Notes: generated by a model from the sequence alone, not told the origin. DNA of 64,000 bases from Neophaeotheca triangularis (GCA_054600435.1 BAAIJX010000014.1:124001-188000); one strand, 5' to 3'. Positions 29,432-36,501 are shown, counted from the stretch's first letter. Translations and numbers: made by a program.

Positions 29432-31783
29432 ATGTCCCAAGGCCTTGTCATAACGAACCCATTGACAAAGTATCGCACTCTCGTCGCCACCGGCCGCATA
29501 CGCCGAGACAATTCCCAATTACGTCTCGCACTACACTTGCAGAAGTTATACGATAGACTGATAGATTACGAGCCGCGCAAAGAATACAGCCGGGAACTTG
29601 ATCGGCTCGCGAAGACTGTGGCATCCCAAGACGAATCCGAGGAGCAACAGACACCATCATCTCGGCGCAATTCGACATGGCGAACACTCATGGCCGCGAA
29701 GGAGCGGAGGGATTCGTTGGCGCTGACACGAAGACTTTCGTCCCATGAAGAGGCTCTGCAACTCACCTCGCCACGAGGTTTGATGCTACACGGAGAAGTT
29801 GGCACGGGCAAATCGATGCTCGTAGACCTTTTCGCTGATTGCTTGCCGAACCGCAAAAAGAGGCGCTGGCATTTCAACACATTTATGCTTGAGACTTTTG
29901 CGAAGCTTGAGGCTTTGAGGCGAACACGAAGTCAGATTCGGCCAGCTTCGCAGCCGCCACAACTCGACGACGAGGACCACAGCATGCTCCATCTTGCGAA
30001 AGACCTCATCGAGACTTCGCCGATTCTATTTCTGGACGAATTCCAACTGCCAGATAGAGCGGCCTCGAAGATTTTGACCAATTTGATGACCTCTTTTTTT
30101 CAGCTTGGAGGCGTGTTAATTGCCACGTCAAATCGTATGCCGGACGAGCTCGACAGAGCGGCGGGTATGCACTATGCCCCGCCCCCTAGCACAATGAGGA
30201 GTCTTGGGTGGAAGTTTGGTATGGGAAAGGGCAAAGGTGTGGGCAGCGGGACGCCTTTTGCTGGACCAGGGGAGTTTGCGCAGTTTCTCGATGTGTTGAA
30301 AGCGAGATGTGAGGTTTGGGAGATGGAGGGAGGGAGGGATTGGAGGAGGCTCGAGAGCGGCTCCGTCAAAGCGAGGGGCCTTCGAGATCAAGACGAAGCT
30401 TTGGAAGAGTGGCAACTTGATGGTCACGATGATTTGCAGTCGGCACCCGGTATGGCGGAGTTGGCGGAAGATAAGATTGCAGAGGAATCACAATCGAGCA
30501 CCGTCGCTCTGCCGATTAACTACCTCTTAGACGCCGATACCGAAGCTGTAAAGAAAGCCACCGAGCAACCATGGCAGCCCTCAACAATGACAGTCTACGG
30601 CCGCACCATCCCCGTCCCACGCACCAACGCCGGCACTGCCTACTGGACCTTTAACGAGCTCTGCACCACGACCCTTGGCCCGGCTGATTTCACAACAATC
30701 GCTTCAAAATACCACACAATAATCCTCACGGACGTACCCATCCTAACCTGGAACATGAAAAACGAAGCCCGGCGCTTCATAACCCTCCTCGACGCGCTCT
30801 ACGAATGCAAATGCAAACTGCTCATCCAAGCCGCCACGGGGCCCGACGACCTCTTCTTCCCCGACGCCAAGCAGCACGAAACCTCCGCCCAACACTCCGA
30901 AGACGCAGTCTACGCCGAGACCCTGGCCGAAGTCTACCAAGACCAAACCGCCCCCTTCCGACCCAACGTCCTCAGCGCAAACCCCGACTACGCCGAACCC
31001 GCCACGAGCCCGGAACCCGACTACACGCACGCGCGCCTCGCAGGCCTCCAAACAGCCAACGCCTGGCAGCTTGAAGACGACCCGCCCAATCGCCCCCACG
31101 GCTCTCCAGCCCCCGACCCCTTTTCCCGCTCCTTTGGCCGCACGGACTCGGAAATGCAACGCGCGCCTATCGACCCCGACGACGACTTGCGCGCTCGCAA
31201 CGGCAGCAGCGGCCGGCGCGGTCCCGATTTCGGCCGAACGAGCGCTTTCACCGGTGAAGACGAGCGTTTTGCTTACAAGCGTGCTGAGAGCAGGCTTTGG
31301 GAGATGACGGGCGCCAAGTGGTGGGCGCGCGAGGGGGAAGACTGGCACCGCCCTTTGCCAGCGGAAGTCCGCAAATGGGAACGTCCCATCGCCAGCACCA
31401 CCACCACCATTACAAACGACACGTCCCGCGCATCCTCCCAGGCAACCTCAGATGCGGCCATGGGACCGGCGACGCCAGACTCCAGCCGTTCGGAAGAGTC
31501 GTTCCGGCAGCCATCACCACCACGGCAGCCGCTTCGACAGTCACCCACGGGTTTGAAAGCTAGTGAGAATGACCCCGTCAATGCGCTGGATTCCAGCCCT
31601 TTCAGAACGGCCTCGGAGCCGCCGCCGAAATTCAGCTGGACGCATATCTGGGGGACGATGAAATGGGGACCGCGAGCCGGGGCTTGGGGGAAGGGGGTTG
31701 AGGGGTTGGAGGAGAAGGAAAAGGAGAAGGAGAGGGCTAGGCGGGAGGAGGAGGAAGAGGGAAGGAATAAAGGGCAAAGGTAG
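29432..31783 (+). CDS. AFG1: AFG1/LACE1 (ZapE-like) mitochondrial AAA+ ATPase
   Basis: PRGLMLHGEVGTGKSML (Walker A), ILFLDEFQ (Walker B), LIATSNRMP, NEARRFITLLDALYE, FTGEDERFAYKRAESRLWEM. Confidence 0.9.
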   Translation: MSQGLVITNPLTKYRTLVATGRIRRDNSQLRLALHLQKLYDRLIDYEPRKEYSRELDRLAKTVASQDESEEQQTPSSRRNSTWRTLMAAKERRDSLALTRRLSSHEEALQLTSPRGLMLHGEVGTGKSMLVDLFADCLPNRKKRRWHFNTFMLETFAKLEALRRTRSQIRPASQPPQLDDEDHSMLHLAKDLIETSPILFLDEFQLPDRAASKILTNLMTSFFQLGGVLIATSNRMPDELDRAAGMHYAPPPSTMRSLGWKFGMGKGKGVGSGTPFAGPGEFAQFLDVLKARCEVWEMEGGRDWRRLESGSVKARGLRDQDEALEEWQLDGHDDLQSAPGMAELAEDKIAEESQSSTVALPINYLLDADTEAVKKATEQPWQPSTMTVYGRTIPVPRTNAGTAYWTFNELCTTTLGPADFTTIASKYHTIILTDVPILTWNMKNEARRFITLLDALYECKCKLLIQAATGPDDLFFPDAKQHETSAQHSEDAVYAETLAEVYQDQTAPFRPNVLSANPDYAEPATSPEPDYTHARLAGLQTANAWQLEDDPPNRPHGSPAPDPFSRSFGRTDSEMQRAPIDPDDDLRARNGSSGRRGPDFGRTSAFTGEDERFAYKRAESRLWEMTGAKWWAREGEDWHRPLPAEVRKWERPIASTTTTITNDTSRASSQATSDAAMGPATPDSSRSEESFRQPSPPRQPLRQSPTGLKASENDPVNALDSSPFRTASEPPPKFSWTHIWGTMKWGPRAGAWGKGVEGLEEKEKEKERARREEEEEGRNKGQR

Positions 31784-32011
31784 GGTGCACTGGGTGTAAG
31801 TGGTTGAGCTTGGGTTGTTGCTGGATGCTTCCACCAAAGGGGTAGGCAGGGTGGAATGTTGATGAGTTCACGGCATGTTGCTCGGTCTGAAAGCTGAACC
31901 ACAAGTCCTCCTCCAAAACCAACGACATTCCCAACAACATCCCTTACCGCCCGCCCCTTCCCTCACCACTTCCCTTCCCCAACCCACTGGACCAACCCCC
32001 CAAAAACAACA

Positions 32012-32186
32012 TGTTGGTGTGATTGGCCTGATGGACAGTCGCGCTAAGCCAGGGCTGGATTGGGAGATGTTAGAGTTGTCACGTTGTGTCACATGACCAG
32101 CTTGGCAAAGCCAACACTGCACCTACTTCTCGGTTGTCTCGTAGCTACTACATACTTTTTCCAATACCATGACACTTTTACCAACT
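32012..32186 (+). repeat. 5' LTR (~175 bp)
   Basis: Bounded by TGTTGG at 32012 and ...TTACCAAC(T) directly before the PBS; its end is repeated at the element's 3' terminus. Confidence 0.8.
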
Positions 32187-32200
32187 GATTATGAGCCCGG
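32187..32200 (+). promoter_or_regulatory. Primer-binding site complementary to the initiator tRNA-Met anticodon arm (Ty5/copia type)
   Basis: GATTATGAGCCC differs by one base from the GGTTATGAGCCC PBS known from Ty5-like elements, and sits immediately after the LTR end. Confidence 0.75.
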
Positions 32201-32458
32201 GTTTTGCGCATTATTACGCGCGCTGAAGACCCTCATAGTGTTCATCAACTGATAACTGCATTGCGACGTGGCTACGTTGCGCAGTTACGACGGACGGATT
32301 GCTCGAGTCCCTTTCGTCCCATATTCAACCTTTCGAAACCTGCGCATCCCTACCCTCAACGGTGGTACGCATTCAGGGCCTGCAAAATCAACTGCAGTAG
32401 GCTCTTCAGTAGCTTCTTCACCGGTCGGTAGGTTACTACAACTAGAATTACCGCAAAC

Positions 32459-33112
32459 ATGGCCGAACTTGGAGTGTCTGGAGTAGATGTCAACCAGCTA
32501 TATAAGCTCCAAGGACGTGAGACCTTCGACAAATGGTATGATGCTGTTAGGGATCACCTCCTTGAGAGACGACTGTACAAGATCGTCACTGGCGAGAGGG
32601 CGCGGCCTCAGAAGGAGGACTTTGTGGAGGCTGGCAAGACAAGGTGGGAGCAAGATGAGGCTTTCGAAGAGGCGGACGAGACATGGTTGTCAAAGGACGC
32701 CTGGGCCAAGATCATACTGCGTACGACGGTGTCGAACAACGTCTACAGTGGCCTAAGGAGGAAGGAGACTGCACATGATATGTGGTCCTACCTGAGCTTC
32801 ATGTATAAGCCTGAAGGTCCTTCGCATGAGATGGGTGCTTGGCATCGATTCGTCGACTGCCGGTTCGACGGGGTGGACATTGCGGCCTTTTGCCGCTCCT
32901 ACCGGAAGTGTTTGAGGGACATGAAGGACATCGGTATCGAATTCGAGGAAAAGCTGGCCCTGTACCAGTTCGTCGACTGCATAGACGACTACTATCCACA
33001 GTTCACGGCCAACCTTCTAAACCAGCTCCGCACGGCCAAACGGAACAGCAATGAATGGTTCCCGGACCTGGACACGGTTATGCGAGATGTCTGCAGCAGT
33101 TCGAGTTCCTGA
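32459..33112 (+). CDS. Copia-type Gag (capsid-region) protein, 217 aa
   Basis: KLQGRETFDKW...L...LYKIVTGERARP...W..KDAWAKIILRTTVS...KETAHDMWSYL..MY matches the copia gag N-terminal pattern; lies between PBS and LTR remnant. Confidence 0.8.
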   Translation: MAELGVSGVDVNQLYKLQGRETFDKWYDAVRDHLLERRLYKIVTGERARPQKEDFVEAGKTRWEQDEAFEEADETWLSKDAWAKIILRTTVSNNVYSGLRRKETAHDMWSYLSFMYKPEGPSHEMGAWHRFVDCRFDGVDIAAFCRSYRKCLRDMKDIGIEFEEKLALYQFVDCIDDYYPQFTANLLNQLRTAKRNSNEWFPDLDTVMRDVCSSSSS

Positions 33113-33356
33113 CCCCATCAACGGGATAGGCAGGACTCCCGGAGGACAAATGGCACAAGACACGGGACATAGAAGGGGCAAATTCCAGACCACCCATCGC
33201 GGATTTACCCGCGATTTGGGCTGTAGGGGTAGCTTTAACCTCTACAGCCACTCCCAGAAGCCAAGTCCAAGAGAACCAAAAGATCCAGCAATTCGAGTTC
33301 CTCGGGCCCGAGACCCCATCAACGGGATAGGCAGGACTCCGGAGGACACATGACAC
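33094..33356 (+). repeat. Imperfect ~60-70 bp direct repeat (33094-33156 and 33286-33356)
   Basis: CAGCARTTCGAGTTCCT[CGGGCCCGA]GACCCCATCAACGGGATAGGCAGGACTCC(C)GGAGGACA present twice. Confidence 0.9.
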
Positions 33357-33512
33357 TTTTACCAACACAACAGCTGCAAAAATCACCCACAAAGCGCAAA
33401 GCAAACCCACCACCCGCAGCAAAACCACCCACCCGCAGCAAACCCACCTACCCACTCAATCAAACAAACCAACCGGGCACCAGCACATCCCCTAGCACAG
33501 TCCCCAAGCAAC

Positions 33513-33585
33513 CAAGTCAAGTCAAGAAAAAAGTCAAGGAAAAGTCAAGGAATAAGTCAAGAAAAAGGTCAAGAAGAAGTCGAGG
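33513..33585. repeat. Imperfect 11-12 bp minisatellite (AAGTCAAG core)
   Basis: aagtcaag/aggtcaag recurs about 7 times, separated by A-rich spacers. Confidence 0.7.
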
Positions 33586-34754
33586 GAAAAAAAAAAACAG
33601 AAAAATCGAGTCGCAATAATGCATAGTGTAGTAGCTACCTTACCTACCTTGCCTACCTACCTTATCACTCTTCCATCCATCCATCCATCAATCCATCCCC
33701 CATTCCATCCATAAGTAGAAAAAAGAGCTGTGAGAGAGATGCGCTTACATATATACATACATACATTCAAATATGTACATACGAGAGCCAGTCAGTCACG
33801 TGCGCACCGCACCCATCCACTCTCAACGGTTAAAGACAAAAAACGTAAAACCCACGACAGCACCTACCTGGAAGAAAGAAAGAAAGAAACAAGAAAACAC
33901 GCAAAAACCAACCGTCAAAGAGATAACAAAGGTACCACGTTCCACTCGTGCTCACGGCAAAAGTAGATACCTCTCCCCCCTGAGAAAAATAAAAAGATAG
34001 AAGAAAAAAATAATACACAATAGCTAAGCTCTATGAACAAACAAATGTCCAGCGACACGCCAAAGGCGTGACGCCAACAAAAGCCACCGCGCCCCCTCCT
34101 TTTCCCGCCCTCTAGCCCTCCATGGCCCATTTCCGGACCGCTCGCCGAACCGGGCGACGAGACCGAGCCGAGCCTGAGCTAGTCGGGTAGAATTGAAAGG
34201 ACAAGCGGGAGAGGGAAAAGGAGAGCGGTGCTAATACCGATACTCGTGGGGGGACAGTTGAATCTCGCGTAAGGGTATACATCAGAGCCGCCGGGTTGTG
34301 GTAATCCGCACACTGAGTGAGATGACAAGACAAGGCGATTGAAGGGGATAGGATGGGAAAAGTGTTGTGGCCGGTTGGAAGAACCTGGAGTGCTGGGGAA
34401 AAAATGCAGTGGGATGCGGTGCCATCGGTCGAGGGTGAAGGATGCGTTTTACATGAGGCACGCCCTAGTTGGGGGTTTTGTATTTTGTTTTTGGTTTCTT
34501 CATGGCTACCGCTTTGCGGCCTCGTGGGAGTCCTGTGCCGTGCCGTGGTCTTCGCTCATTCGCAGTACGCCATGAACTCGCTCGCTCGCTCGCTGTATGC
34601 TTTTTGCTAGTCGCGTCGGTGGAAGAGCGTGACGTCCTCGTAAGATTGGTTCGTTAGGTCGTGATTCGCGTAGAATTTGTACAAATGCAAGAAATGCCGG
34701 AAATGTGTTGTTGTTGTTGTTGTTGTCGTTGAGGGGTGGGAGGGGCAGAGTCCG

Positions 34755-36501
34755 TTAACGGCGAGAGCCCAGGGAGCCTCTTCCGAGCAGAGAAGCTGGG
34801 TCGGTGAAGAGACGGAGGAACTGCGTTCGCTTCGAGGGCTGGCGTTGTGCGCCGAACTTGGCGTATTGTACCATGGGGCCGACTATGTCCTTATCTTCCA
34901 TGACGGGAAACTTGCCTGATCGCTGTGGATCGTTAAGGGTAGGGATCTTAGTGAGTGGTGTGGGCTCAGCGAGAGGTTGAATCCTTCGAGACTGGAAGCC
35001 GGGCGTGTTATCCTCTTCTTTGTCGTTTGGTCCCGGGCTGGCTATGGCGTTCACCTGGGCGTGTTTGTCCCGCCAATCTTTCTCGATCCCGCTCCACTTT
35101 TGCTCGGTGAGCTTGTAAGTGTGAGATGTTGGACCGTAGTGTTCGGCGATGCGTGCCGCTTGGCGCATGTATTCCTGGCGGGCTGTTTGCCAGTCTTCGC
35201 GTAGCTTATTGCAGGCCTTGTAGTCAACAACATCTGGCATATAAGGTGCGGGTTTGATGTCAAAATTTGCGTGCCCAAGCTTGTGTGCCCAAGGGTCCAT
35301 CTCCTCTGAGATGGTCATTGAGGGAATCTCAGAAGACGGCACAATATTCGACGCTCTATTAGCCATGGTGAACGAAGCTACAGATGGCTTCGACGACAAC
35401 GGTGGCGTAGGCACACCAAGCATGTTCGGGGTGCCGGCCGGGGTGTTGTCAGCCGCGAAAGTAGTTGGGGCTCCCGCGACTGTGGGCGATTGGAGAGGTG
35501 ACTGGATCTGCTCTCGGGACTCATTGCGAGTGTCCATCATGGGAGGTAATAGGGGGGTCGCCGCAGCTCCCCTATGGGCAATAGGGTCTTCTTGATACGG
35601 TGCTTGCGTCTGAACAGGCGCGGGTGGACCCTTTGGGGTGCTCTGATGATCAAGATTCGAAGTACTGGCAACTGGCGTGATTGGGGGCGTCGAAGAGCTT
35701 GCGCTGCGATGATCGAATGGAGCTGGGTTGGGGTGTCTGATGGAAGTCGGGCGCGAAGTCGGTGCACTGCGCACAGAATCGGTGGGACCCTTGAGTTGAT
35801 CTTTCTTGCGCCTGGAAATCGAAGCCCATGGACGTGAAAGTCTCCGGAGAGGCTCTACAGATGGAGAGATTTCGCCTGATCGCCTACGCTTAGTAGAGCG
35901 AATGGACAGATCGATGTCGCTGAAGTTGTCGTCGCCCGGTGACCATTCAGACATGGGCGAGGTCACTGAGGGTTGTGAGTAGGACCTTGCGCGGTGCTCG
36001 CAAAACGATGTGTCACCTCGTTTCGGATTAGCAAACGCCATTGACAAACGAATGTCATGAATACTCACAGATGCACAGCGGGCCCTCGGAATCTCCAGCA
36101 AGCACGCTAAAGGGCCCATCTTCCAAATCACCATGGCTATCCATTGAACCGCGGGGGTCGTCGGACCATTCGCCGATCAAGTCGAATGGCTCGTATTGTT
36201 TCGAAGGTGTGCCATGGATGTGATCTTCCGTTTCGGCAGGATCTTCCACTAAGTCATGAAGAGGGGGTTTTGCAACATTGACAGGCGAATCGGGAGTCGA
36301 AGCAAGAGAAGAAGTCGAGCTAGGCCCGCGATTGTGACTCCTGGTAGAGAAAGTGGGCGTATTTGGCGATGAGGCGCTAGAGTTGCCCGAAGAGTCGCGC
36401 GAATGCCCGCCGAGAGTCAATTGTTGGGGTGAAGTGTTGCCGGCCATTGTGTCGTCGGATATATCGTCGAGGAAAGTGTTTTGAGTTGTAGAAGAGTGCA
36501 T
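34755..36501 (-). CDS. Conserved fungal Ser/Pro-rich hypothetical protein; 2 exons, intron 36017-36068
   Basis: ATG 36501. Intron GTGAGT...GCTAAT...GAG joins PLCIC to DTSFCEH. Conserved-looking blocks DPWAHKLGHANFDIKPAPY, EHYGPTSHTYKLTEQKW, KFP..EDKDIVGPM. Confidence 0.8.

Follow-up and report, generated by a model that had tools for sequence, protein, structure and literature searches.

The locus at 32007-33372 of a 64,000-nucleotide stretch of Neophaeotheca triangularis DNA (GCA_054600435.1, BAAIJX010000014.1:124001-188000), the whole of which is called the window here, raises the question of why an open frame for a retroelement capsid lies between a long terminal repeat (LTR) and a scrap of a second one, and whether it belongs to a small mobile element, to a gene that has been kept, or to the debris of an ordinary insertion. 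The preliminary description, made from the sequence, had called it a miniature gag-only copia retroelement and had taken it for either a very recent event or a retained capsid-only gene. The reading preferred here, to which we give a probability of about 70%, is that of a single-copy, immobile, internally deleted Ty1/copia relic, an ordinary decayed insertion from a new and divergent lineage. The features on which this reading is built are collected in Table 1.

Table 1. Features of the relic, with positions counted from the first base of the window.
Feature	Position	Strand	Basis or remark
Left target-site duplication, CAACA	32007-32011	.	Read in sequence; ACAACA from 32006 if 6 bp
5' LTR, 174 bp	32012-32185	+	Begins TGTTGGT, ends CATGACACTTTTACCAAC; end repeated at the 3' side
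Untranslated leader, 273 bp	32186-32458	+	Read in sequence
Candidate primer binding site, GATTATGAGCCCGG	32187-32200	+	Core TTATGAGCCC at 32189-32198
gag ORF, 217 codons and TGA, capsid only	32459-33112	+	Pfam PF14223, AlphaFold2 model, structural matches
Capsid N-terminal domain, about residues 10-119	32486-32815	+	Structural match
Capsid C-terminal domain (CA-CTD), residues 120-217	32816-33109	+	Structural match
Direct repeat, copy A1	33094-33156	+	Overlaps the gag stop
Tail between gag and LTR stub, 236 bases	33113-33348	+	No pol or zinc-knuckle homology in any frame
Direct repeat, copy A2	33286-33356	+	Adjoins the LTR stub, whose opening bases, CATGACAC, double as the final 8 bases of A2
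3' LTR remnant	33349-33367	+	Last 18 bases of the 5' LTR, plus terminal A
Right target-site duplication, CAACA	33368-33372	.	Read in sequence

Ends of the element and candidate primer binding site

The relic, including its target duplications, reads CAACA, then TGTTGGT through to ACCAACA, then CAACA again. Its outer tips are TGTTGGT (32012-32018) and the reverse complement ACCAACA (33361-33367), and the 7-bp inverted repeat described earlier thus holds for the outer ends of the element, while the inverted repeat of the 5' LTR on its own matches at 6 of 7 positions. A matching 5-mer on the two sides would be expected by chance in these C/A-rich flanks with a probability of about 0.004, estimated from local composition, which agrees with the 5-bp duplication and the single insertion previously proposed; with ACCAAC taken as the end of the element, a 6-bp duplication, ACAACA, is possible as well. 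The neighbour is an AFG1-like ATPase gene, with the relic 229 bp downstream of it.

The 5' LTR was found to be 174 bp long, close to the 175 bp or so estimated before. Its end, CATGACACTTTTACCAAC at 32168-32185, is repeated exactly at 33349-33366 (18 of 18 bases; BLAST E 0.006 within the window), and a repeat search within the window found no recurrence of the rest of the 5' LTR at the 3' end. The two copies of this 18-mer are followed by different bases, T at 32186 after the 5' LTR and A at 33367 on the 3' side, and the preliminary description was accordingly right about a short 3' stub and one base too generous in counting its identity as 19 bp. Where a Ty1/copia element carries two LTRs, this locus therefore has a complete 5' LTR and a 3' LTR reduced to 18-19 bp.

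The core of the candidate primer binding site, TTATGAGCCC, equals over its 10 bases the complement of the anticodon arm of yeast tRNA-iMet, and with the preceding G the agreement is 11 of 12, the reference being the yeast tRNA and not that of the host. The yeast initiator tRNA-Met complement was taken from an oligonucleotide printed in PMC11230868. This would be the half-tRNA type of primer site that had been suggested for the locus, and a primer site complementary to an initiator tRNA-Met half molecule is described, together with the tips TGTTG/CAACA, as a hallmark of the Ty5 family (10.1101/2025.04.25.647736); the same tips and 5-bp duplications are described for Ty1-like elements (PMC4139406). 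Scans for tRNA genes and Rfam families gave none in the window. The leader holds an 11-codon upstream ORF (32191-32226), the ATG of which lies inside the primer site and is the sole other ATG upstream of gag.

The capsid reading frame

The gag frame opens with the ATG at 32459 and runs unbroken to the TGA at 33110-33112, giving the uninterrupted 217 codons noted from the sequence, and its product matches the Pfam family Retrotran_gag_2 (PF14223), the profile against which the preliminary description had proposed to check it, scoring 47.4 bits where the cut-off is 27 (E 2e-12). The match to PF17241, the Ty5 Gag N-terminal family, is below threshold (E 9.5e-4, 19.4 bits, cut-off 23.5). A HMMER scan of 1.84 billion representative proteins, at E 0.001 or better, returned 88 proteins including the window's own; the best other match, P0002, is 32% identical and is a 1373-aa gag-pol polyprotein with gag, Pol beta-barrel, integrase SH3 and RVT_2 domains, making it the closest full-length relative. 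Gag-only predicted proteins are commonplace among these relatives and an intact gag-only ORF appears in itself not unusual, because 81 of the 88 matched proteins, the window's own included, are shorter than 600 aa.

In an alignment of 37 sequences the ORF aligns from its N-terminus through the motif LDTVMRDV, after which the relatives go on with LLDE, and it keeps all five of the nearly invariant columns. The ORF reaches its stop where the capsid C-terminal domain is complete. Of 10 relatives inspected at this point, 8 have a CCHC zinc knuckle 30-50 residues further on. Among 66 candidates for closer relatives of near length only the window's own protein was recovered, and none of the 419 candidates for longer relatives scored. 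The single-protein query gave 69 pattern matches in metagenome contigs, none of them confirmed, and an exact 21-base pattern spanning the LTR end and primer binding site had no match in those contigs. A protein atlas search gave copia-gag clusters only.

The AlphaFold2 model of the gag protein, built with the family alignment, has eleven helices, a pLDDT of 93.2 and a pTM of 0.77. Foldseek returned one match at E 0.001 or better, the Drosophila Copia capsid, to which VIA-align (8vvw) superposed residues 10-217 with Z 13.6 and rmsd 5.1 over 177 aligned positions. With residues 120-217 alone, Z was 11.4 for the Ty1' CA-CTD, 10.9 for Ty1 p22 and 10.8 for Drt2, at rmsd 2.0-2.4 over 87-88 residues; helical models often gain Z values of this size from arrangement alone, and in this case the fold match is backed by the sequence profile. 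Searched against the sequences of solved structures, the gag family profile finds the Drosophila Copia VLP protein (E 2.4e-20), and the single gag protein finds nothing at E 1 or better. From the Pfam match, the family profile and the fold matches together, the ORF is predicted to encode a complete two-domain capsid and nothing further.

On its sequence characters the locus is thus a remnant of a Ty1/copia-type (Pseudoviridae) LTR element, apparently of the Ty5-like, half-tRNA-primed kind, because the gag profile scores above its cut-off, the predicted fold is that of a capsid, and the TG..CA tips, the 5-bp duplication and the tRNA-iMet-type primer core are all present; the copia assignment of the preliminary description is upheld on the same grounds. 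Chance origin of the whole feature was considered and rejected on the gag profile match, the exact repeat of the LTR end, the odds of the target duplication and the primer-site match taken jointly.

Missing parts, probable deletion junction and other copies

The seven polyproteins longer than 600 aa among the 88 matches were compared with the whole window by tblastn: five match it, only at 32483-33091, and the other two match nowhere. These matches are confined to gag, as expected from the earlier statement that protease, integrase and reverse transcriptase are missing, and the protease, integrase, reverse transcriptase and RNase H that Ty1/copia elements carry in this order are not found. Also absent ahead of the LTR stub are a polypurine tract and the start of U3, the nearest purine run being GGAGGA near the junction. 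The tail has no CCHC zinc knuckle in any frame, and no significant similarity in any frame to any of the 88 matched proteins; a nucleocapsid zinc knuckle would have been removed by the deletion, if the parent had one. Ty1 Gag itself is not known to carry a zinc knuckle. A +1 frame that is open over the tail (33021-33353, 110 codons) was considered as a frameshifted pol or a continuation of gag and was rejected: its best alignment has E 0.36, and one of the three frames stays open in 41% of 20,000 first-order Markov simulations with the composition of the tail.

Also present is a direct repeat of about 70 bp, absent from the preliminary description, in which copies A1 and A2 match in 59 of 72 columns with 29 bases exact. 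The gag TGA falls exactly where A1 is 9 bp short relative to A2, and the frame would stop again at 33170 even without this gap. With the junction left aside, about 57 bases can be compared between A1 and A2, and they hold one substitution and two indels; dating the locus from this internal repeat was rejected as too weak. A2 resembles A1 up to GGAGGACA and from CATGACAC onward is identical to the LTR end, with a patch, CATG.CAC, in which ATG and CAC are common to both sources. The deletion junction therefore probably lies where the end of A2 overlaps the start of the LTR stub, at an imperfect microhomology.

Under the standard model of LTR reverse transcription the copy cannot replicate in its present form and is immobile, because strand transfer requires a 3' R and plus-strand synthesis a primer, and both are missing. 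The designation as a miniature retroelement, so far as it implies that a gag-only element moves, is not supported for a copy that has no polypurine tract and no U3-R of the 3' LTR.

Other copies were sought by aligning contigs of the sequencing runs, a set from which contigs can be filtered out, to 30000-35500 at 85% identity or more. One run, probably the source of the window, contains 99% of the sampled words; its contigs cover the locus with zero differences, and one of them spans the neighbouring gene, the LTR and gag without interruption, its sole break being at the internal repeat of 29-30 bases. A 28.5-kb contig resembles 32010-32063 with 6 differences in 54 bases, its similarity beginning at the proposed LTR tip, and a 1.2-kb contig resembles the LTR end and primer site (32182-32224) with 4 differences in 43 bases; the loose ends of both run on as related, more diverged sequence. 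Among the source-run contigs there is no second copy of gag or of the tail at 85% or more, and no joint that skips the element. Of two further runs under the same organism label, which contain next to none of those words, one gave no aligned contig and the other only two pieces, of 45 and 51 bases, both in the neighbouring gene; neither covers the locus, and no empty-site allele emerged. The genome holds an older, diverged family, and a near-identical parent was not seen in the source-run contigs; single-copy status and the absence of a parent, coming from run contigs, are provisional. The very recent event envisaged earlier finds no gag match at 85% or more in the source-run contigs to stand on, the only other matches there being the two short LTR and primer-site fragments at about 10% divergence.

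In the preferred account of an internally deleted relic, an element would have integrated once, generating the CAACA duplication, and would have come from a family in which the anticodon arm of initiator tRNA-Met probably serves as primer for reverse transcription. A DNA-level deletion after integration may then have brought the final 18 bases of the 3' LTR up to a point just past where gag encodes the capsid, presumably in this order and presumably by illegitimate recombination at the imperfect microhomology (CATG.CAC) between the tail and the U5 of the 3' LTR. Such a deletion would have taken pol, the polypurine tract and the U3-R of the 3' LTR, and the remainder would be the 5' LTR, the primer site, the 273-bp leader and the intact two-domain capsid ORF, which may still be open since the copy escaped repeat-induced mutation and decay has not yet set in. 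As to its size, the deletion removed either some 4-5 kb of pol, or just a polypurine tract and 156 bp of LTR from a gag-only parent.

A gag-only parent of this kind, laid out as LTR, primer binding site, gag, tail, polypurine tract and LTR, would make the relic a damaged member of a family resembling the TR-GAG elements of plants, with the damage limited to a small deletion, of the polypurine tract and some 156 bp of 3' LTR; we consider this unlikely. The lack of pol or nucleocapsid coding homology in any frame of the tail (33113-33348) is consistent with it, as is the stop at 33170 regardless of the 9-bp gap, by which the parental gag may have ended here, and elements of such layout are known in plants (PMC4350172). 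It is opposed by the source-run contigs, in which neither gag nor tail recurs at 85% or more, by the absence of any relative of this layout in the protein and metagenome collections searched, and by P0002, the closest full-length relative, being a normal gag-pol polyprotein. TR-GAG elements are described as non-autonomous plant LTR elements with a gag-only ORF, two LTRs, a primer site and a polypurine tract, forming families that are mobilised in trans (PMC4350172). The relic is like them in being short and in having a single GAG-only ORF, an LTR and a primer site, and unlike them in having neither 3' LTR nor polypurine tract, in being a lone copy in the source-run contigs, and in being fungal.

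Persistence of the open frame and relation to known systems

Over the whole element TpA/ApT is 0.84, (CpA+TpG)/(ApC+GpT) is 1.09 and the composite index of repeat-induced point mutation (RIP) is -0.24, the usual thresholds for the two ratios being 0.89 and 1.03; for gag alone the composite index is -0.40. The LTR and leader give borderline composite values of -0.01 and +0.19, from only 174 and 273 bases. There is thus no repeat-induced point mutation in the element or in gag, and the negative indices match the earlier impression of an un-RIPed gag. The GC content at third codon positions (GC3) of gag is 0.679, within the 0.49-0.82 spanned by 15 long host ORFs. An open, un-RIPed ORF with host-like composition fits a copy made unique before mutation, and a retained gene would look alike.

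The neighbouring AFG1-like ATPase, identified by Pfam, has best matches that are 60-61% identical and named from Dothideomycetes (among them Salinomyces, Meristemomyces and Hortaea). Judged from these sequences the host lineage is poorly sampled, and the missing gag orthologue says little, because the neighbouring gene is itself no more than 61% identical to its best matches.

Some features sit awkwardly with an ordinary relic. The ORF is fully open, aligns end to end and folds confidently, yet no near-identical parent was seen, and some damage might be expected in a relic unless it is very young. Its GC3 of 0.679 lies inside the range of host ORFs, and the tail repeat has two indels whereas the 651-base ORF has no frameshift, in a sample too small to weigh. 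Under the ordinary-relic reading there is no sign that the host needs or uses the capsid ORF, and the ORF probably has no host function.

The same features are those to be expected of a capsid-only gene retained by the host or by the element family, in which a capsid driven by the LTR and lacking its RNA-binding part would co-assemble with particles of related active elements and poison them, as Ty1 p22 and Drt2 do in yeast; we judge this reading to be quite unlikely. The intact, confidently folded ORF includes a complete CA-CTD matching Ty1 p22 (Z 10.9, rmsd 2.4, 88 aligned) and Drt2 (Z 10.8); the copy has kept its 5' LTR and a leader in which the primer site supplies the only ATG; GC3 is host-like and RIP absent; and no near-identical parent was seen from which the copy could have been freshly made. 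Precedents are described in an exapted Ty1' relic (PMC10951436) and in copia-derived co-opted gag genes of Dothideomycetes (PMC8321522). Set against this, the whole capsid is encoded here, whereas a CTD fragment acts in Ty1; the source contigs contain no cognate element at 85% nucleotide identity or more to restrict; and intact gag-only ORFs are common by-products of decay (81 of 88 matches below 600 aa). That the locus might be a lineage-specific, LTR-driven gene for a complete capsid without a nucleic-acid-binding tail, kept for interfering with the assembly of related copia particles, is quite improbable. If this restriction-gene reading were true, the locus would be a filamentous-fungal counterpart of Ty1 p22 and Drt2 with its insertion scars still present.

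In standard LTR reverse transcription the first strand transfer precedes synthesis of the U3 of the 5' LTR, for which the 3' U3 is the template. It is very improbable that the truncation dates from reverse transcription, with the shortened cDNA integrating as now seen, despite the intact tips and duplication (integrase needs just the terminal bases of each end) and a junction with short homology of the template-switching kind, because the 5' LTR is complete from its TGTTGG tip and, had the minus strand passed directly from the first 18 bases of U5 to gag, no complete 5' LTR would be expected.

Read as an ordinary decayed insertion, the relic shares with Ty5/copia-type fungal elements its TGTTG...CAACA tips, 5-bp duplication, candidate primer site of the tRNA-iMet anticodon-arm type and copia-type gag, and departs from them in having neither pol nor polypurine tract and only 18-19 bp of 3' LTR. 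Its gag is at most 32% identical to any of the 1.84 billion representatives, and it represents a copia lineage, from poorly sampled fungi, whose nearest counterpart in very large protein collections does not exceed 32% identity. Truncated LTR retrotransposons with a surviving gag are routine genome debris, and the main use of this one is in correcting annotation, the 217-aa predicted protein being a transposon capsid and not a host gene. The copy is also a clean example of capsid-only survival that is datable in principle.

The co-opted copia gag genes Crtg12 and Crtg13 of Dothideomycetes were defined by cross-family synteny and selection, as described in PMC8321522. Unlike them, the relic is still flanked by its target duplication and retains LTR and primer site, and no orthologue could be detected, the nearest protein being 32% identical.

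Ty1 p22/p18 and Drt2 of Saccharomyces are capsid fragments consisting of the CTD only, for which restriction, expression and population-wide presence are reported as demonstrated (PMC10951436). The CA-CTD of the relic is predicted to have the same fold as p22 and Drt2 (PDB 7nlg and 9rxy; Z 10.8-10.9, rmsd 2.4, 88 residues), and Drt2, like the capsid here, is encoded by a relic, in its case of a Ty1-family element. The locus differs from them in encoding a whole capsid, at 11-14% sequence identity. Across both domains the best structural match is the capsid of Drosophila Copia (PDB 8vvw and 8s41), at 14% identity; the Copia protein extends past the capsid, whereas the ORF of the relic stops there.

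Leader and tail of the element

Any transcript initiated in the LTR would carry the 11-codon upstream ORF 5' of gag, the 217-codon capsid-only ORF of this truncated copia-type insertion, and the ATG of the upstream ORF is obligatory in any primer site that is complementary to a CAU anticodon.

The tail, which lies between the gag stop and the 3' LTR remnant, involves two further features. The first is an open +1 frame, whose conceptual product is a basic peptide with many R, G, P and T residues. This frame has no Pfam matches and no significant relatives in comparison with the 88 gag-homologue proteins, and simulation of the tail gave a 41% chance of one open frame among the three. The second is a direct repeat, the two copies of which are spaced by 192-201 bp and start in the same codon phase, the left copy having 9 bp fewer and 1 additional base relative to the right copy. 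This repeat may be a tandem duplication in the parent element or part of the rearrangement.

Features in and around the insertion (window coordinates)
Feature	Position	Strand	Remarks
Long ORF near element, 611 aa	25021-26856	-	
AFG1-like ATPase gene, 783 aa	29432-31783	+	3' end 229 bp before insertion
Upstream ORF, 11 codons	32191-32226	+	starts at ATG within primer site
Open frame, 110 codons	33021-33353	+	+1 relative to gag; spans whole tail
Direct repeat, ~70 bp	33094-33156, 33286-33356		inside element's tail
Tandem repeats, two tracts	33400-33453, 33519-33590		immediately right of insertion, A/C-rich intergenic stretch
Long ORF near element, 459 aa	34755-36134	-	

Related LTR pieces in the source genome

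Contigs of X1, probably the source sequencing run, contain two further loci with diverged pieces of the same LTR family (aligned to 32010-32063 and 32182-32224), one of which has the primer site. The loose ends of both pieces appear more A/T-rich than the window copy, an enrichment that might reflect RIP-like transitions.

Neighbouring genes and repeats

The top database matches of the AFG1-like ATPase, named from Dothideomycetes, are only 60-61% identical, and the host lineage is therefore poorly sampled. Neither minus-strand ORF has a Pfam family at E <=0.01. One of the two tandem tracts comprises 2.9 copies of a 19-bp unit, AGCAAACCCACCCACCCGC, and the other 3-5 copies of a 12- or 23-bp unit built on AAGTCAAG.
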